A stretch of 56,796 nucleotides of DNA, taken from IMG/VR virus record IMGVR_UViG_3300012940_000029, positions 1-56,796 of that record; one strand, 5' to 3'. The stretch's first letter is position 1. Every line of letters starts with the position of its first letter. The stretch comes from a virus (lineage: Duplodnaviria; Caudoviricetes). Below the pieces are notes generated by a model that worked only from the letters and a program-made list of their open reading frames with translations, was not told the DNA's origin and did no database searches. Of this stretch, positions 2,402 to 20,193 are shown in pieces. The translations under genes were made by a program, and so were the position numbers.

Positions 2402-4614
2402 GCGACGACAAGAAGAGCATGCTGGAGCGGCTGGACATGTTCCGCCGCTTCGGCAGCACCGGGAAGATCGACGAGAGCCTGACCGGCGAGGAGAAGACCC
2501 GGGCCGAGATGGCGCGCAACCGCGCCATCAACCGCAGGCAGGGGGCGCTGTCGTCGGGCGGCAACGCCGCTGGGCGGTCCGGAGCCGACATCAGCTTCGC
2601 CACCGGGCGGCCCAGGGATCCGCTGTTCTACTGGCGGCAGAACAACCTTCCCTACGACTTCGCCGACCCCGACGAGCTGCGCAAGATCAGACTCTATTCG
2701 CGGCTGCTGTATCTTACGCACCCGATGGTCGCGTCCTGTGTGGACATCTACTCCAAGTTCCCATTGCTGGGAATGGAGCTGCGGTGCAAGGACGACAAGC
2801 TCACGGAATTCTATTCCGACCTGTTCCTGGGCGAGGAGAACCTCAACTACGAGGAGTTCGTCCTGGACCTCGGCCGGGAGTACTGGACGGTCGGCGAGGC
2901 GTGGCCGTTCGCCACCTTCAACGAGAAGCTCGGCATCTGGGACTCTGAAGAACTGCTGAACGCTGACGACGTGGAAGTGCAGCGCAGTCCCTTCATGAAG
3001 GACCCGCGCTACTTCATCCGGCTGCCCGAGACCATTCGCCGGGTGCTGAACGAGCGTCAGCCCGCCTGGGAGTACACCAGGCTGATCGAGTCCTACCCCG
3101 AGCTGGTGCACTACGGGGCCGACGACGCCCGGATGCCGGTCTCCAACGTGCTGCTCCAGCAGCTCCGCTTCAAGGGCGACACCTTCAACGTGCGCGGCGT
3201 GCCGATCCTGACCCGCGCCATGCGCGCGGTGATCCAGGAGGAGATGCTGAACTCGGCCGTCGATGCCATCGCCGACCGGCTGTACACGCCGCTGATCCTG
3301 GCCCGGCTCGGAGCCAGTGCCACCGACCTGGGCACCGAGCAGCCCTGGATTCCCAGCCAGGATCAGCTCGCCGACTTCGAGGAGGCGCTGGACGCGGCGC
3401 TGGCCGCCGACTTCCGCGCACTGATCTACCACTTCGCGGTGCAGATCGAGCCGGTCTTCGGCCGCGAGCAGATGCCCGACCTGACCGGGGACTTCGAGCG
3501 GCTGGAGGACCGGATCCTCCAGACCTTCGGGCTGTCCAAGACGATGCTCACCGGCGCGGACGCGGGCGAGACCTACGCCGCCGACGCCCTCAACCGCGAC
3601 CTGATCGCCCAGCTCCTGACCACCTACCAGAAGATGATCGCCCGGCACTACCGCAAGCGGGCGCTGATCGTGGCCGAGGCCCAGGAGCACTACGACTACG
3701 AGGAGCGCAACGGCAAGCGCTACGTCATCACCGAGGAGATCCTCGAAGTCGACGAGGAGACCGGCGAGGAGTACATCGTCGAGCAGCCCAAGCTGCTGGT
3801 CCCCGAGATCAAGTTCCGCACCATGAACCTGCGCGACGAGGAGACCGAGCGGCAGTTCCTGGAGGGGCTGGCCGAGTCGGGGGTGCCGGTGTCGATCAAG
3901 ACGCGGCTCATCAACATCCCGATCGACTTCAACGAGGAGATCAAGCGCCGCCAGGACGAGCAGGTCGAGCTGGCCGTCGCCGAGCAGGAGACCCGCAAGC
4001 GGCAGTACCAGGCACTGCGCGACAACAACCTGCCGATCCCGCAGGACCTGCGCGCCGACTTCGAGCCCCGGCCGCAGCAGCTCCCGGCCCCCGACTCGAT
4101 GATGATGCGCACGCCGACGATGGGCATGGACCCCACCGGGATCTACCCCAACATCGCCCCCACCCCCGAGGACGCGACCATGGTGCCGCCCGGGCAGCCG
4201 GTGCCCTCCTTCCCCGAGCCGCAGATCCCCGGCACGCCGGTCATCCCGGCCCCCGAGCCGCAGGACAAGGACCCCGGCAAGAACCGCCCCGACGAATCTG
4301 ATGAGCAGCGTGCCGACATGCCCAAGTCCTCCTCCCTGGACCAGGCGGAGCTGTGGCGGCGGGCGCGGCGGATGCGCACCGTCGCCGCCGAGCACGCCCC
4401 GCGCCCCGATCACAAGGCCATCGCCGCCAAGGCCGCCGAGATCAACCGGATCGAGGACGAGGAGCGCCGCACGGCGGAGCTGCAAAAGCTCCTGGCGCAG
4501 GCCAACCCGAAGGGCGGCGACTTCGGTACGCCCACCCACATCGGCATGCGGCGGCACGTCCCGCTCGACCAGATCGAAGGGATGGAGTACGAGGCCGATG
4601 ATGAGCGCGGGTAG
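2398..4614 (+). CDS. Portal protein
   Basis: 738 aa; YLTHPMVASCVDIYSKFP, VGEAWP and RGVPILTRA resemble Bxz1-like portals; position upstream of head genes. Confidence 0.8.
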   Translation: MSDDKKSMLERLDMFRRFGSTGKIDESLTGEEKTRAEMARNRAINRRQGALSSGGNAAGRSGADISFATGRPRDPLFYWRQNNLPYDFADPDELRKIRLYSRLLYLTHPMVASCVDIYSKFPLLGMELRCKDDKLTEFYSDLFLGEENLNYEEFVLDLGREYWTVGEAWPFATFNEKLGIWDSEELLNADDVEVQRSPFMKDPRYFIRLPETIRRVLNERQPAWEYTRLIESYPELVHYGADDARMPVSNVLLQQLRFKGDTFNVRGVPILTRAMRAVIQEEMLNSAVDAIADRLYTPLILARLGASATDLGTEQPWIPSQDQLADFEEALDAALAADFRALIYHFAVQIEPVFGREQMPDLTGDFERLEDRILQTFGLSKTMLTGADAGETYAADALNRDLIAQLLTTYQKMIARHYRKRALIVAEAQEHYDYEERNGKRYVITEEILEVDEETGEEYIVEQPKLLVPEIKFRTMNLRDEETERQFLEGLAESGVPVSIKTRLINIPIDFNEEIKRRQDEQVELAVAEQETRKRQYQALRDNNLPIPQDLRADFEPRPQQLPAPDSMMMRTPTMGMDPTGIYPNIAPTPEDATMVPPGQPVPSFPEPQIPGTPVIPAPEPQDKDPGKNRPDESDEQRADMPKSSSLDQAELWRRARRMRTVAAEHAPRPDHKAIAAKAAEINRIEDEERRTAELQKLLAQANPKGGDFGTPTHIGMRRHVPLDQIEGMEYEADDERG

Positions 4615-12869: not shown

Positions 12870-15554
12870 ATGCTGCGTAAATATGCCGTTGCGACGGTGA
12901 TCGACGCCTACGTGGCCACGAAGCGCTCCTCGGCGCAGAAGACCGCCCACCGAGCGGTCTTCAACTACGAGCCGAGGCCGGGATATCTTTACGTGCGCTC
13001 TCGGATGATATCATCAAGATGCAACGACAACCACGACGAGTTCCCCGCCGAGGAGATCCGCAAGGCGTGGAAGACCGCCATCGGCAAGCCGGTCTTCGTC
13101 AACCACCACAACGAGGACCACAAGAGGATGCGCGGCGTGATCATCGACGCCGCCCTGCATGAGGACACCCTCCCCGACGGCAGGCCGGACGTGTGGATCG
13201 AGGCCCTGCACGAGATCGACGCCCAGCGCTTCCCCAAGCTCGCCCAGGCGATCATCGAGGGCCGGGTCAACCGCACCTCGATGGGCACCGACGTCGGCTA
13301 CTCGATCTGTTCGGCGTGCGGCAACAAGGCCACCACCCCGGCCGAGTACTGCCAGCACATCCCGCAGATGAAGGGCAAGATCCTCTACCGGCACACCGCC
13401 TCCGGCCAGCGCGAGGGTCACCTGATCCGGGAGATCTGCTACAAGCTCGGCTTCTTCGAGAACTCCTTCCTGGTGGAGGACCCCGCAGATCCGACGGCTG
13501 TGGTCACGGGCGTGGACGACCGGGGGCTGAGGGCCACCGCGAGCCTGACCAAGGAGGCGGCCCCCGAGGGCATGCGCTTCCGCTTCACGCGTGCCGAACA
13601 CCACCCCAACCGCAAGCACTTCCTGAAAGCGACGTTGCCTGATGAAGAGGGCCGTCACCGTGAGGTTGGCTACCTCATGTGGGAGCCCCACGACGGTCAG
13701 GTCTCAATGGTCCAGACCGATTACGACAAACGCGGCCAGGGCATCGCCTCCGCGCTGTGGCACCGAGCCCACGAGGTCGCCGGGCAGCATGGTCTTACAC
13801 CGCCTCGGCACTCCGATGTGCAGACGCCGGACGGCATGGAATGGGCGCAGAAGGTCGATCAGCAGCCGATCCACGCGCCGGGTCACGGTCAGCAGAGCCT
13901 CTTCGAGGTCCCCCCGGAGCAGGGCGGCACCGAAGTGGCCGGAGTGCCCCGGCCCCGGCACGACGACCTCTTCGACCACCTTCTCCACGATCACGCCGAG
14001 TGGGGGCGCGAGAGTGTGGAGCAGATGCGCGACAGCGGCAGCCTGGAGTCCGCACACCAGCGGCTGCACGCCAATCCGGAGATGTTCCCGGGCAGGCACT
14101 TCCACATCCACGGCGTGAAGTCGTCCCTGCCCAAGGTCGCCGAGTACGACGTCCCCTGCGAGCGGCCCGGCTGCGGCACGCACTGGGGCCCGCATGGCGC
14201 GGCCGGGCTGCTGATCCACCACGACGACCCCGAGGACGGCCAGACCCGCTACCTGCTCCAGAAGCGCGCCCCCTGGGTGGACCACGGCGGCACCTGGGGC
14301 ATCCCCGGCGGGGCTCTGCACGAGGGTGAGAGTCCCGAGGAGGGTGCCCGGCGCGAGGCCGAGGAGGAGATGGGCGAGCTGCCCGACGGGCTCGTGCACC
14401 ACCGGACCCACTCCGACGACCACGGCGGCTGGGTCTACCACACCGTGAGGATGAGGGCCGACGAGCCGTTCCACCCGGGCGAGTGGGACGACGAGTCCAC
14501 CGGCCACGGATGGTTCACCAGGGCGGAGATGCGGAACATGGACCTGCACCCCGGCTTCGCCCAGAGCCTGCCGGAGGTCCTGGGGGAGCACCGCAAGGAG
14601 TCCTCGCTGCCCTCCATCGAGATCGAGGCCGCCCGCTACGACAAGCACCAGCACCCGGGCCTGATGAGAGACGAGGGCGACATCCACATGCGCAATCCGC
14701 ACCGCAGGCCCTCCAGCCTGCCGTCCCTGGCCTTCCGCAAGGGTGCGCCCTTCGCGGGCTATGAGGACTTCGAGGACTGCGAGGAGAAGAACGCCGACAA
14801 GGAGGACCCCGAGGCGTACTGCGGGGAGATCAAAAAGCGCACCGAGGGGCGGCGCTCCAGCCTGCCCACCCTGGCCTACGGCGAGACCAAGGCCCCGCAG
14901 GATGTCGATACCCTGCGGGCCGAGAGCTGCCCCGTGTGCGGCGAGGTCGATGCCTTCGACGGCGACCGCTGCCAGGTGTGCAACTTCCTCCAGCCGCCGA
15001 GCATGTTCACCGACCCGGACACCGGCGTCGCCCGGCAGATGGAGCTGCGCAAGGACGAGATGGGCCAGCAGGCCCAGGTCGGACCGGACGGCCAGCCGAT
15101 CCCCGGCCAGGAGGGCATGGACCTCAACGACCCGCTCGGCCAGGACCCGGTGATGCAGGGCCTGCCGGGGCAGGCCGAGGATGGCGTGGCCGACCTGTTC
15201 TGCCCGGCGTGCGGCTTCTCGGCCGACACCCAGGCCCCGATGACCAACAACGACCCGTCGCTGCCCAGCGGGCAGCAGGGCCTGCTGGCGGGCGACGTCT
15301 GCCCCAACTGCGGCGAGGCCACCATGCTGTCCCCCAACGACGTCGGCATGCTCGGCGGCGAGGTCCCCCAGGAGATCGCCGATGACGCCAACGCCAACGG
15401 CGTCCCCGACGACCAGGAGGGCGAGATGCCCGTGGAGGAGGGCGAGCTGGACGAGGAGGCCGACGCCGAAGCCGAGGCCGATGCTGTAGAGGACGAGGAC
15501 GAAGCTCCGAAGGGGCGGAAGGACAACACGCGCCGCGCAGCCAGGCGCGGATGA
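12870..15554 (+). CDS. Prohead (capsid maturation) protease fused to GNAT-like and NUDIX modules and Zn-ribbons
   Basis: GKPVFVNH..TSMG..CSACGN..CQH..FFENSFLVEDPADPTA protease pattern; KRGQGIASALW; GGALHEGESPEEGARREAEEEMG Nudix box. Confidence 0.85.
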   Translation: MLRKYAVATVIDAYVATKRSSAQKTAHRAVFNYEPRPGYLYVRSRMISSRCNDNHDEFPAEEIRKAWKTAIGKPVFVNHHNEDHKRMRGVIIDAALHEDTLPDGRPDVWIEALHEIDAQRFPKLAQAIIEGRVNRTSMGTDVGYSICSACGNKATTPAEYCQHIPQMKGKILYRHTASGQREGHLIREICYKLGFFENSFLVEDPADPTAVVTGVDDRGLRATASLTKEAAPEGMRFRFTRAEHHPNRKHFLKATLPDEEGRHREVGYLMWEPHDGQVSMVQTDYDKRGQGIASALWHRAHEVAGQHGLTPPRHSDVQTPDGMEWAQKVDQQPIHAPGHGQQSLFEVPPEQGGTEVAGVPRPRHDDLFDHLLHDHAEWGRESVEQMRDSGSLESAHQRLHANPEMFPGRHFHIHGVKSSLPKVAEYDVPCERPGCGTHWGPHGAAGLLIHHDDPEDGQTRYLLQKRAPWVDHGGTWGIPGGALHEGESPEEGARREAEEEMGELPDGLVHHRTHSDDHGGWVYHTVRMRADEPFHPGEWDDESTGHGWFTRAEMRNMDLHPGFAQSLPEVLGEHRKESSLPSIEIEAARYDKHQHPGLMRDEGDIHMRNPHRRPSSLPSLAFRKGAPFAGYEDFEDCEEKNADKEDPEAYCGEIKKRTEGRRSSLPTLAYGETKAPQDVDTLRAESCPVCGEVDAFDGDRCQVCNFLQPPSMFTDPDTGVARQMELRKDEMGQQAQVGPDGQPIPGQEGMDLNDPLGQDPVMQGLPGQAEDGVADLFCPACGFSADTQAPMTNNDPSLPSGQQGLLAGDVCPNCGEATMLSPNDVGMLGGEVPQEIADDANANGVPDDQEGEMPVEEGELDEEADAEAEADAVEDEDEAPKGRKDNTRRAARRG

Positions 15555-16874: not shown

Positions 16875-17408
16875 TTGCTCCGGACGCGAATGAACAGCTC
16901 GTACATCAAGCGGACCTTCCGCCCGTTGTACGGCTGGACGCAGATGACGCCCAAGTCGGTCTTTCTGGACCCGTCTTGGGACCGCAGCACGCCGATCTGG
17001 CCAGGCATGGTCATGACCAAGGCGGTCGGCGAGAACGTTACGCTCTGCGGTGCAGGTTCGGGTGCGGGCGGCGTCGGCACGGCGGCCAACAACGTGCCCT
17101 ACGGCTTCGCCGCGCTGTACGTCGGCGGCGACGGCATCGACGAGCCGCTGGACGTCGGCATCAACGCCTTCGCCGTCTGGGTGATGAGCCCCGACGCCGA
17201 GGCCGAGGTCCTGGCCCCCGCATTCGCCACGTCGCTCACCTACACCGACACCGCCGGGTCCGAGACCCTGCTGCACGTCGGCACGGCGGGCCCCACCATC
17301 GGCAAGCTGGTCCCCTCGTCGGAGACCGACAAGACCACCGCGCCGGTCGCCCGGCTGCTGAAGGTCAACTCGCCGACGAAGATCACGATCGGAGGTCTGC
17401 GGCCGTGA
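16875..17408 (+). CDS. Capsid decoration/minor capsid protein
   Basis: TTG after GGAGGG; immediately upstream of the major capsid gene; IWPGMVM motif. Confidence 0.65.
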   Translation: MLRTRMNSSYIKRTFRPLYGWTQMTPKSVFLDPSWDRSTPIWPGMVMTKAVGENVTLCGAGSGAGGVGTAANNVPYGFAALYVGGDGIDEPLDVGINAFAVWVMSPDAEAEVLAPAFATSLTYTDTAGSETLLHVGTAGPTIGKLVPSSETDKTTAPVARLLKVNSPTKITIGGLRP

Positions 17409-18388
17409 CCCAGCTCACCGCCTCCGGCCTCGGCCGGACCGTCGCCCGCAAGAGCGACGACTACGTGGCCGAACTGACCGCTCGCCAGGCCAACGGCCGC
17501 ACCCTGTCCCACAAGGACAAGGTCAAGAAGCTGGCCCTCATCCTCAAGGACGAGGTCTCCGGCATCAAGCGGCTCGGCGTCGGCATGGTCGGCCCGATCC
17601 AGCTCAAGCTGCGCTACCAGGGCGTCACCCGCAACATGCTGATGGAGGACCCGGTCACCCCCGGGACCCCCGTCGAGTACGACGTGTGGGACGACCTGGG
17701 CCAGGCGTACATCATGTCCGGCACCGAGGGTGAAGTCCGCGTCACGCCCTTCGAGGGCAAGCGCGTCCCGGTCCGCTTCTTCCGCATCGCCAGCCAGCCT
17801 GCGATCCGGAAGGAAGACCTGTTCTACCTGCGCATCAACGCGGTCGAGCAGGTCCAGGACGAGACCAAGCAGGCGATCCTCAAGCAGGAGGACGCCCGGC
17901 TGCTCGTGCTGCTCCAGGCGGCGCTGACCGACTACGCCACCCGGCCCGACCACGTGGTCACCCCGAACCACGACATCACCGAGGCGTCCGGCTACCTGAC
18001 GCCGGGCTCGCTCTACTCGGCCGTGTCCATGACGGACATGCACGAGCTTCAGAGCGCGCGGATCCTGATCAACCCGATGGACTTCCGGGACATGTACCGG
18101 TGGGACATCAACCAGACGGGCTGGGCCTTCAAGGACCGCGTCGTCGCCGGTCAGCAGATCACCAGCTTCGGCGAGTTCCAGATCCAGCGGTCCATCGCGG
18201 TCCCGCAGAAGAAGATCTTCCTCACGCCGGAGCCGAACTTCCTCGGCGTCTTCCCGGTCCTGTACTCGCTGGACGTGGAGGAGAACCACAACGTCCCGGC
18301 GTTCTGGAAGGGCTGGGTATTCGACGAGATGGTGTCGATGGCCATCCTGAATCCTCGCGGTATCGCAACGATCACGAAGACGCCTTGA
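17405..18388 (+). CDS. Major capsid protein (Bxz1/cluster C-like)
   Basis: GPIQLKLRYQG..YDVWDDLGQAY..TPFEGKR recalled as similar to the Bxz1-type capsid; GTG start at 17405 rather than 16820. Confidence 0.88.
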   Translation: MTQLTASGLGRTVARKSDDYVAELTARQANGRTLSHKDKVKKLALILKDEVSGIKRLGVGMVGPIQLKLRYQGVTRNMLMEDPVTPGTPVEYDVWDDLGQAYIMSGTEGEVRVTPFEGKRVPVRFFRIASQPAIRKEDLFYLRINAVEQVQDETKQAILKQEDARLLVLLQAALTDYATRPDHVVTPNHDITEASGYLTPGSLYSAVSMTDMHELQSARILINPMDFRDMYRWDINQTGWAFKDRVVAGQQITSFGEFQIQRSIAVPQKKIFLTPEPNFLGVFPVLYSLDVEENHNVPAFWKGWVFDEMVSMAILNPRGIATITKTP

Positions 18389-18418
18389 TCCACTACCCTG
18401 CGTAGCGAAAAAGGCGTC

Positions 18419-18463
18419 AGGACCGCCCAAACCGGACACGGTGCGGGCGGTCTTTTCGTTTTG
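18419..18463 (+). terminator. Terminator after major capsid gene
   Basis: AGGACCGCCC/GGGCGGTCTT stem followed by TTCGTTTT. Confidence 0.7.
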
Positions 18464-18875
18464 TACCCGGTACAAGAACTACGGCAACGGCCACAACAAG
18501 TACTGCTCGAACGAGTGCGCCCAGAAGCACACCAAGATCAAGAAGCACATCGTGGTGGACGACGCCATCGTGCTCGACTCCGGTTACGAAGCTCTCTTCT
18601 GGGGCCTGTGCACCACCCTGAAGATCCCCATCGAGCGGTTCGACCGGCAGTACGGCGTCGCGTGGCGCGAGGGCTGCTGGTACGCGCCGGACTTCTGGCT
18701 GCCGACTCTGGGGACGGCCGTCGAGCTGAAGGGCCTGGAGGACGCTGAGGACGAGCTGAAGTGGGCGGCCTACCGGGAGCAGCGTAGTGCCCTGAAGGTC
18801 TTCCTGCATATGGACCTGGTGGATATGATTTCCGCCAAGGGCGATGTGATCGCGACGATCACGAAGACTCCGTAG
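18441..18875 (+). pseudogene. 5'-truncated PD-(D/E)XK endonuclease ending in a copy of the capsid C-terminus
   Basis: KYCSNEC half Zn motif, YAPDFWLP..VELKG catalytic motif; no RBS or start outside the terminator; ends IATITKTP. Confidence 0.7.
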
Positions 18876-18957
18876 GCCCCCACACCCTACGGACCCCCAG
18901 GGCCCGCCTCTCCTGTCGGAGGGGCGGGCCTCCCCGTGGAAGGGTGGAGGAGGCCCG

Positions 18958-20193
18958 ATGCCGTCGCGATACCTATGGACGCCCCCGAGGCGCAACACCG
19001 AGGACCCCAACCGGCCTCCGCTGCCGGGGATGGAGCGCGCGGCCCCGCGCATCCACCCGAGGCACCCCCACTATCACCACGCCGGAAACGATGAGATCTG
19101 GGGCCACCTGGCGCACCCCGACCTCCAGCGGCACAATCCCTTCCTGGTGCATCCCCAGGACGATGAAGTCCACGGCGGTGATGTGGACTACGAGGCGGGC
19201 CGGAGCTGGAACGAGGATCACGGCGGTTACGCCGACCGCTACGAGGACATGGACGAGGAGCCCGAGCACGGGCCCGAGCGCATCGAACGGCGTCTGCGCC
19301 ATGCGATCGGCAAGGCGCTGCCCGCCATATCGGTCAGCAAGCACGCCCTGCACTCGATCCTGGACAGCGGGCGGATCAAGAGCCAGTTCGAGACCGGCAC
19401 CTCCAGGGGCGCGCTGGCCCCGGAGACCCGGGCCGACGTCGAGCACCAGTTCTTCGGCTACCCCCACGACCTGCCCGCCAAGGCGCGGCCGATCTACGGG
19501 TATCTGACCCACAACCCCTCCGTCCAGCATCCGGGCGTGCGCGGCTACGGCGAGCACTCCCTGGTGCTGCACCGGCCCCGCATCTGGCACCGCACCAGCG
19601 CCTTCATCGGGGACACGCTCGACCACCGGGAGGAGGGCCGGATGGCCCATCCGGTGCAGGATTTTAAATTGTCAGGATTTCCCCGGTACACCGACCCCAA
19701 GGACTGGCGACTGGACCGCCCCAACCATGAAGAGGGGATCGACTACACCGAGGCCCACTTCCACGGCGGCGTCGGATTGCGGGACGTCCACTACGCCGTG
19801 CTGCACGAGGACCCCGGGTCCTTCCGTGACCACGAGCACATGCAGGAACTCAAGGAGCATCTGAACCGGCGGCGGATCCCCTGGGTGCACATGCTCAAGG
19901 GCAAGCCCCAGGAGTGGCAGCACCATCTGGCCCGGGTGAACCAGGCCGTGGCGAGAGGAGCCTTCGTGACCCCCGACGCCCAGGTGATCGGTCACCAGGG
20001 GCACGAGCGCTACCTGATCGACCTCGGTTACGACGACCACCGGGGGCACCGGCAGGCCCAGGTCGCCGACGTCAGGCTCGGCCAGCTCCACACGCCCAGG
20101 GCCAAGGACTCGATCCTGGCGCGCGGCTACTGGGAGGAACCCCCCTACCCGGTGGACCTGGACGACATCCTGCCGCACGTCCTGCCGGTGTGA
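18958..20193 (+). CDS. His-rich protein with DUF3626-like (ART-related) domain
   Basis: GRIKSQFETGTSRG..RPIYGYL..YGEHSLVL..YTEAHFHGGV; late promoter at 18913-18948. Confidence 0.75.
   Translation: MPSRYLWTPPRRNTEDPNRPPLPGMERAAPRIHPRHPHYHHAGNDEIWGHLAHPDLQRHNPFLVHPQDDEVHGGDVDYEAGRSWNEDHGGYADRYEDMDEEPEHGPERIERRLRHAIGKALPAISVSKHALHSILDSGRIKSQFETGTSRGALAPETRADVEHQFFGYPHDLPAKARPIYGYLTHNPSVQHPGVRGYGEHSLVLHRPRIWHRTSAFIGDTLDHREEGRMAHPVQDFKLSGFPRYTDPKDWRLDRPNHEEGIDYTEAHFHGGVGLRDVHYAVLHEDPGSFRDHEHMQELKEHLNRRRIPWVHMLKGKPQEWQHHLARVNQAVARGAFVTPDAQVIGHQGHERYLIDLGYDDHRGHRQAQVADVRLGQLHTPRAKDSILARGYWEEPPYPVDLDDILPHVLPV

Follow-up and report, generated by a model that had tools for sequence, protein, structure and literature searches.

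A probable remnant of a homing-endonuclease cassette with a replacement capsid gene end in an uncultivated actinophage

INTRODUCTION

The closest described parallels to the locus examined here come from fungal mitochondria, where mORFs make "gene hybrids" with conserved genes: atp6 of Allomyces macrogynus; atp6, atp9, cox2, and nad3 of Glomus; atp6 and cox2 of Phlebia radiata; and rps3 of Ophiostoma (PMC3630166, PMC4019555). In such hybrids, the stranded copy is nearer to the insertion-free relative than the inserted copy is, and the differences between copies are largely synonymous. The present locus is the 3′ end of the major capsid protein gene in IMG/VR virus record IMGVR_UViG_3300012940_000029, an assembled contig of an uncultivated virus (Caudoviricetes) with an estimated completeness of 38%; the whole stretch analyzed, 56,796 nucleotides, is referred to as the window. 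From its sequence and that of its relatives, the window probably holds a degenerate free-standing homing-endonuclease cassette that carries a replacement capsid gene end.

As in the mORF hybrids, an endonuclease open reading frame (ORF) lies in the 3′ part of a conserved gene, and a replacement C terminus is read with the upstream gene (PMC3630166, PMC4019555). In the window and in two related loci described below (L106 and L059), the native C terminus is likewise duplicated and stranded downstream. The replacement-end layout is already known from fungal mitochondria. Several features differ from the mORF case. The host is an actinophage capsid gene, whereas mORFs interrupt mitochondrial respiratory genes; instead of LAGLIDADG or GIY-YIG, the nuclease has a T7-endonuclease-I-like PD-(D/E)XK domain with helix-turn-helix (HTH) domains and zinc fingers; and the duplicated piece is just 8 to 11 codons, with the window copy being a doubly truncated remnant.

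Free-standing homing endonuclease genes (HEGs) and "intronless homing" have been described in T-even phages (PMC2988022, PMC2790892, PMC2330249), and phage HEGs are known to gather near essential genes, among them capsid genes; T5orf172 HEGs lie in capsid neighborhoods in 31% of cases (PMC10448857). The element studied here resembles phage HEGs in being a stand-alone modular nuclease beside a conserved essential gene, sporadic among relatives and accompanied by flanking polymorphism. Unlike the capsid-end family, the phage HEG nucleases are of the GIY-YIG, HNH, and T5orf172 types. SegF, SegB, and MobE are T-even free-standing homing endonucleases that spread by intronless homing, and to our knowledge the T-even free-standing HEGs lie in intergenic positions and bring along no second version of their target's terminus. 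The restriction-endonuclease (PD-(D/E)XK-like) fold is also used by homing enzymes: I-Ssp6803I is a homing endonuclease with this fold, and the I-Bth0305I fold is matched by the structure model of the window nuclease. Both enzymes are intron encoded, unlike the window nuclease, whose sequence relation is to T7 endonuclease I.

Engineered home-and-rescue gene drives cut an essential gene while supplying a recoded version of it for rescue (PMC7968924). By analogy only, the cassette would share with such a drive an essential-gene target and a respelled replacement, avoiding self-cutting and gene loss; the drive, unlike the window cassette, is synthetic, CRISPR-based, and placed in insects. In the literature outside subscription papers and supplements, no phage homing endonuclease with a replacement gene end was found, nor was the capsid-end nuclease family found described as a homing enzyme.

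RESULTS

The window capsid has 60% identity to its counterparts in Rhodococcus phage Finch and Mycobacterium phage DTDevon. A scan of viral contigs with the capsid collected 80 related viral loci (L004 to L083), whose capsids are 81 to 94% identical to that of the window. An initial annotation of this DNA had described two ends encoding IATITKTP-stop, one closing the capsid gene (copy 1) and one closing a downstream nuclease ORF (copy 2), and rereading of the sequence bears this out (Table 1). The copies are identical at 22 of 27 bases; they differ by three synonymous third-position changes and by the stop codon (TGA versus TAG). A 20-base probe from copy 1, with at most two mismatches allowed, matched just two sites in the window, and none of 100 dinucleotide shuffles gave two matches. 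The ORF that ends in copy 2 was called mechanically at 18441 to 18875 (+).

An intact form of the arrangement is present in L106, an independent 1,504-base contig of another collection, obtained in one metagenome scan. The order in L106 is capsid 3′ end, nuclease, small ORF, and stranded capsid terminus, and its capsid 3′ end encodes a protein sequence identical to that of the window. The nuclease (L106 237 to 1232) is full length, with 331 amino acids and its own stop. It is followed by a 54-amino-acid ORF (1229 to 1393) that appears membrane-like by eye and by a noncoding RGIATITKTP-stop copy (1410 to 1442), after which comes a hairpin that the window shares. The left flank (window 18233 to 18354) is identical to L106 at 122 of 122 bases, and the right flank (window 18849 to 18937; L106 1416 to 1504) is identical at 88 of 89. 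Within the last 34 capsid bases, however, the two sequences differ at 10 positions, all synonymous (Fisher P = 7e-8 versus the flank). Because identity with L106 runs to 18354 and respelling follows, the variable cassette begins at capsid codon 317/318.

Comparison with L106 also defines what the window has lost. The window nuclease segment 18465 to 18808 has 85% nucleotide identity to L106 810 to 1153, and homology of the remnant to its relatives begins only at 18465, which corresponds to L106 codon 192. Absent from the window are L106 166 to 809, comprising 191 of the 331 codons with the HTH domain and most of the zinc fingers, and approximately L106 1196 to 1415. The latter segment takes in the small ORF along with ∼12 codons at the nuclease 3′ end and the opening 6 bases of the stranded copy, which reaches that much further upstream in L106 than copy 2 does in the window. 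In L106, the nuclease ends at a stop of its own and the old terminus is noncoding; on this comparison, the in-frame joining of the two in the window most likely reflects a secondary 3′ deletion.

Two other accounts of the repeat can be weighed at this point. One is that the original design was a nuclease reading into and ending with the old capsid terminus, the sole later damage being a terminator that removed the start. The in-frame ending of the window ORF would suit such a design, as would the full-length nuclease of L059, L061, and L063, which likewise ends in the old terminus. It is nevertheless quite improbable: L106 has the same flanks together with a separate nuclease stop, the 54-amino-acid ORF, and a longer, noncoding old terminus; in L058 and L065 the old terminus lies beyond further ORFs; and an in-frame junction has a chance of one in three each time. 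The initial annotation was right that the old terminus is stranded downstream, but the intact cassette of L106 speaks against its picture of a nuclease that originally ended in that terminus. Its proposal that a terminator cut the nuclease survives in part: a spacer with a hairpin does abut the breakpoint, but the truncation is a deletion of 191 of 331 codons. The other account, a chance repeat or a metagenome assembly artifact, could appeal to the window being an incomplete assembly from an uncultivated virus. Its probability is very small given the shuffling result, the same right junction in the independent L106, and parallel arrangements in four other lineages.

Which of the two copies is native was assessed from the sequences that follow them. 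The 82 bases after copy 2 resemble the post-stop regions of the insertion-free loci L004, L083, and L028 (similarity score reached by 2, 14, and 26 of 1,000 shuffles, respectively), whereas the 77 bases after copy 1 are unlike them (609, 961, and 378 of 1,000 shuffles). Because the flank after copy 2, and not that after copy 1, matches insertion-free terminators, the copy 2 side is the native capsid end. The spacer that follows copy 1 had no relatives in the window or in any collected locus, and its likeness to L106 is limited to the first ∼25 bases; its hairpin folds at −35.8 kcal/mol (z = −3.1). RNA folding was used for both hairpins, and a promoter/terminator scan gave no plus-strand site here because the hairpin loop is beyond the limit of the scan. 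In the closest insertion-free relative, L004, the capsid ends in VATITKTP and there is no nuclease; across the window's 24 coding bases, copies 1 and 2 are about equally close to L004.

A parallel case was found in L059, L061, and L063, where the capsid ends in LASITKSL-stop and the full-length nuclease ends in TLASITKS-stop. Taken together, the last 25 bases of the L059 nuclease and the 81 bases that follow match the capsid end plus terminator of the insertion-free L072 at 94% identity. As a separate observation, the nuclease ORF of L080 (5040 to 5077) ends inside sequence that normally lies just past the capsid terminator (L072, L059, and L053), giving this kind of cassette another right junction.

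Capsid termini were sought by a six-frame motif search over 83 loci. A single copy was found in 71 loci and two copies in 8, and 4 loci had none; shuffled 21-base probes gave 1 hit in 1,660. The eight two-copy loci represent five lineages (the window, L009, L058/L062, L059/L061/L063, and L065). The second terminus is fused to the nuclease in L059/L061/L063, noncoding and beyond a small ORF in L058/L062, ∼600 bases beyond the nuclease in L065, and inverted, bracketing a terminator, in L009. A nuclease is present in all eight two-copy loci; the 64 viral loci that gave no nuclease hit all lack a second copy. Where the stranded copy is direct, its left end lies somewhere in codons 317 to 320.

Small ORFs between the nuclease and the stranded capsid end were seen in L058 (5056 to 5227) and L065 (4958 to 5090) as well as in L106; that of L065, like that of L106, is membrane-like by eye. 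In L009 (3962 to 4135), the last ∼25 capsid bases recur as a perfect inverted copy past the terminator, and weaker similarity continues for ∼70 further bases, giving a long hairpin; a four-HTH nuclease gene follows at 4189.

That the ORF downstream of the window capsid gene encodes a PD-(D/E)XK nuclease domain, as first annotated, was confirmed by profile matches, catalytic residues, and structure-model matches. The score against Pfam PF05367 (Phage_endo_I) was 16.7 bits for the window ORF and 13.7 bits for the L106 protein, both under the gathering cutoff of 29.1; the window ORF also matched phrog_9019 (E = 6e-7), and an NCBIfam search gave nothing useful. A profile of 12 homologues matched the T7 endonuclease I structures 1m0d, 3cae, 1fzr, and 2pfj (E = 3e-6 to 9e-5) over ∼43 residues of the catalytic core (Y-PDF ... 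VE-KG). E50, P83-D84, and K97 are invariant in the 12-homologue alignment and E95 is kept in at least 90% of the sequences; the window ORF retains all of these residues. An AlphaFold model of the window nuclease (pLDDT of 78) matched proteins of the restriction-endonuclease fold. Foldseek against the PDB returned nothing at an E value of ≤0.001, with the I-Bth0305I catalytic domain as the best match (E = 5.6e-3; probability of 1.0); VIA-align of the model with that domain gave a Z score of 7.9 and a root mean square deviation of 3.5 over 86 residues. Z scores near 8 were also obtained for Vsr, VRR-NUC, and TnsA, and therefore the fold alone is established by these matches.

The DNA-binding modules that are present in the full-length relatives are lost from the window copy. 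The window remnant is 96% identical to L014 over 75 bases, and no second copy of the nuclease family was found elsewhere in the window. The stump lies behind the terminator hairpin with no evident start signal, and as read from its sequence it is most likely a dead pseudogene. A fusion of capsid and nuclease by frameshifting was considered and rejected: the nuclease frame is open from 18351, but no slippery site was seen on inspection, without a formal test. For annotation purposes, ORF 18441 to 18875 is best treated as a remnant, with its final eight codons being capsid derived.

Among the 80 related viral loci, 16 have a nuclease homologue within 3 kb downstream of the capsid stop, always at this one fixed place behind the capsid gene. 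Complete homologue ORFs start 0 to 250 bases past the capsid stop and encode ∼260 to 400 amino acids, with one to four HTH domains, several or repeated Cys (zinc) fingers, and a C-terminal nuclease. Scanning again with the nuclease profile yielded 22 loci: 18 from the capsid-end nuclease family and 4 with unrelated stand-alone endonuclease-I-like genes. In five family members on new contigs (L085, L086, L087, L094, and L100) and in L106, the gene is directly behind the capsid gene; every family member that could be placed is directly 3′ of the capsid gene of Bxz1-like actinophages. IATITKTP is not a native ending of these nucleases, as homologues of ten lineages finish in unrelated residues; the sole exception, L059/L061/L063, ends in its own group's capsid terminus, LASITKS, and is the parallel case described above. 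A further 5′-truncated homologue was noted in L067 (4602 to 5150), a 182-amino-acid open frame with the nuclease domain only, ∼650 bases past the capsid stop.

The HTH and finger modules of the family match PHROG families labeled HNH endonuclease. These matches fall mainly on the HTH/finger region, and no Pfam HNH family was found in eight full-length proteins at an E value of ≤0.05. In phrog_1271 and in GenBank records of Cluster C phages, the family goes under the label HNH endonuclease or Holliday junction resolvase. Its nuclease domain resembles T7 endonuclease I; the finding points to a nuclease family that is mislabeled in public annotation.

The spelling of the capsid end is unusual in the window. 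Of the 327 capsid codons, only 14 have A or T as the third base, 5 of them within the last 12 (codons 316 to 327), in agreement with the initial annotation's remark on atypical codons at the functional terminus. The capsid end is the only 13-codon window of 315 with at least five A/T-ending codons (binomial P = 1.4e-4). Insertion-free L004 has fewer such codons at its terminus, three in the last 13 compared with five in the window; this result and the unrelated endings of the nuclease homologues both favor the initial annotation's proposal. Across the relatives, the frequency of A/T-ending codons in the last 55 capsid codons was 0.21 in 15 nuclease-bearing representatives versus 0.11 in 35 without a nuclease (Mann-Whitney P = 5e-4 after thinning at 95% identity); in the gene body, the frequencies were 0.04 and 0.07, respectively. 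Left out of these counts were loci with less than 1,200 bases downstream and no nuclease, L087 (with an extended capsid end), L001, and L002. The unthinned comparison filed L009, whose nuclease hit is cut by the contig end, as nuclease-less.

The same region is variable in cultured phages. A homologue lies just after the capsid gene in 148 of 223 capsid-matching phage records, 146 of the 148 being from Mycobacterium phages, and it is annotated there as hypothetical, HNH endonuclease, or Holliday junction resolvase. The Cluster C locus carries a DTDevon-type allele, other alleles, or no gene (Phusco, NoodleTree, and Breeniome). The capsid genes of DTDevon (L002), Norm (L109), and Phusco (L108) have at most 1 difference in 711 bases, and yet their last 60 bases show 13, 12, and 5 differences, affecting 10, 9, and 5 codons, all synonymously.

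Coordinates of the features at the window locus are collected in Table 1.

Table 1 Features at the capsid gene end of the window
Feature	Position	Strand	Detail
Major capsid protein gene, 327 codons plus stop	17405..18388	+	phrog_2522, E = 2e-99
Functional capsid terminus, variable and synonymously respelled, from the third base of codon 317 through the stop; putative replacement end of the cassette	18355..18388	+
Repeat copy 1, IATITKTP-stop, in use	18362..18388	+	Capsid gene's own 3′ end
Spacer with hairpin and U-tract (18411-18462), abutting the 5′ breakpoint of the nuclease remnant	18389..18464	+	76 bases
Probable homing-endonuclease gene remnant: half of the last zinc finger and a complete PD-(D/E)XK domain	18465..18848	+
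Repeat copy 2, stranded original capsid terminus; provides the remnant ORF with its final 8 codons and its stop	18849..18875	+
Native capsid terminator region, hairpin 18900-18931	18876..18957	+	Fold of −53.3 kcal/mol, z = −3.35

Two neighboring genes were noted. Upstream of the putative scaffold, cement, and capsid genes is an 894-amino-acid ORF (12870 to 15554) with a NUDIX domain (residues 456 to 563; E = 8e-14) and a tail in which several Cys-pair motifs were seen by eye, an unusual fusion within the head-gene block. Between the capsid terminator and the next conserved gene is a DUF3626-family gene (18958 to 20193; E = 4e-9). Among the 80 relatives, this gene was found only in L028 and L083, plus one weak partial match in L027; because so few have it, it represents a second variable insert at the capsid-terminator spot.

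DISCUSSION

The initial annotation had proposed that an element invaded the capsid gene without splicing by supplying a synonymous replacement end, and the relatives and L106 support the core of that proposal. The cleavage resistance that the annotation ascribed to this end is putative, the sign of it being that the functional terminus varies in a purely synonymous way. The following course of events would account for the observations. The cassette would have entered the capsid gene about ten codons ahead of the stop. In its intact form, the element would comprise its own last capsid codons and stop, a spacer, the 331-amino-acid nuclease, and a small ORF of membrane-like appearance; stranded downstream of the element would be the last codons and terminator that the recipient had originally. 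During coinfection, we infer, the nuclease would cut the conserved capsid 3′ end of genomes without the cassette, and repair would copy the cassette from the carrier genome into the cut genome, completing homing. The capsid end of the carrier would be spared because its codons, though specifying the same protein, are spelled differently. In the window lineage, one deletion would then have removed the DNA-binding two-thirds of the nuclease, and another would have removed the last nuclease codons and the small ORF, fusing the stump, presumably without function, in frame to the stranded capsid end.

An alternative is that the gene is an ordinary accessory nuclease with a junction-resolving or regulatory role, acquired by illegitimate recombination and often lost, in which case the duplicated ends would be insertion scars and the synonymous variation a product of phage recombination. 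T7 endonuclease I, a relative of the nuclease domain, acts as a structure-specific junction resolvase and not as a site-specific enzyme, and some GenBank annotators call Cluster C homologues Holliday junction resolvases. The high frequency of the homologue at the same place in the capsid-matching phage records and the mosaicism of the group's capsid genes would also fit. We nevertheless consider this alternative unlikely. The family has its HTH/zinc-finger arrays in common with phage HNH endonuclease families; phages with otherwise identical capsid genes differ in whether they carry the gene and in which allele; and the variation is purely synonymous and limited to the last 12 to 15 codons. 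Stranded ends occur at nearly the same codon in five lineages, truncated copies are found in the window and L067, and a spare capsid end would be of no use to a housekeeping resolvase.

Several further observations weigh against a homing cassette with a replacement end. About nine nuclease-bearing lineages have no stranded terminus. A/T-ending codons are somewhat enriched at the capsid end in nuclease-less loci too, and the comparison of nuclease-bearing with nuclease-less loci was corrected for relatedness only roughly. The two copies in the window differ at three synonymous sites and the stop, and the capsid genes of the group diverge by 6 to 15% anyway; because the divergence between the copies is no greater than that, recoding does not follow from the window by itself. 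Among the relatives, none matched the window's functional terminus as a donor would, the best being 79% identical over the last 42 bases. Sliding-window comparisons of capsid genes (the window versus L004, L014, L026, and others; L059 versus L071, L072, and others) gave a mosaic and no clean coconversion tract. In Cluster C, the nuclease gene sits past the capsid terminator, and no duplicated capsid end was found in DTDevon, Norm, or Phusco with up to 6 mismatches allowed in 24 bases. The nuclease-less Phusco still has 44 bases from the end of the nuclease ORF and, because of this remnant, may represent nuclease loss rather than a naive site.

On balance, a degenerate homing-endonuclease cassette with a replacement capsid end remains the probable reading of the window. 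A broader proposal, to which we give an even chance, is that the last dozen codons of the capsid gene in Bxz1-like actinophages are a battlefield: unrecognized homing endonucleases would have cut there repeatedly, and their cassettes, with respelled, cut-proof ends, would have driven the purely synonymous hypervariation that is found in uncultured soil phages and cultured Cluster C mycobacteriophages alike. Such a history would explain the odd pattern of mycobacteriophage capsid genes that are identical save for synonymous changes in their last 60 bases. The Cluster C phages grow on Mycobacterium smegmatis mc2155, and therefore cleavage, immunity of the respelled end, and biased inheritance are directly testable. 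The arrangement suggests that a selfish nuclease can inhabit an essential structural gene without an intron or intein by means of a spare gene end, a design that is known in fungal mitochondria and has been reinvented in synthetic gene drives. If the broader proposal is true, these elements would constitute a natural "home-and-rescue" drive.

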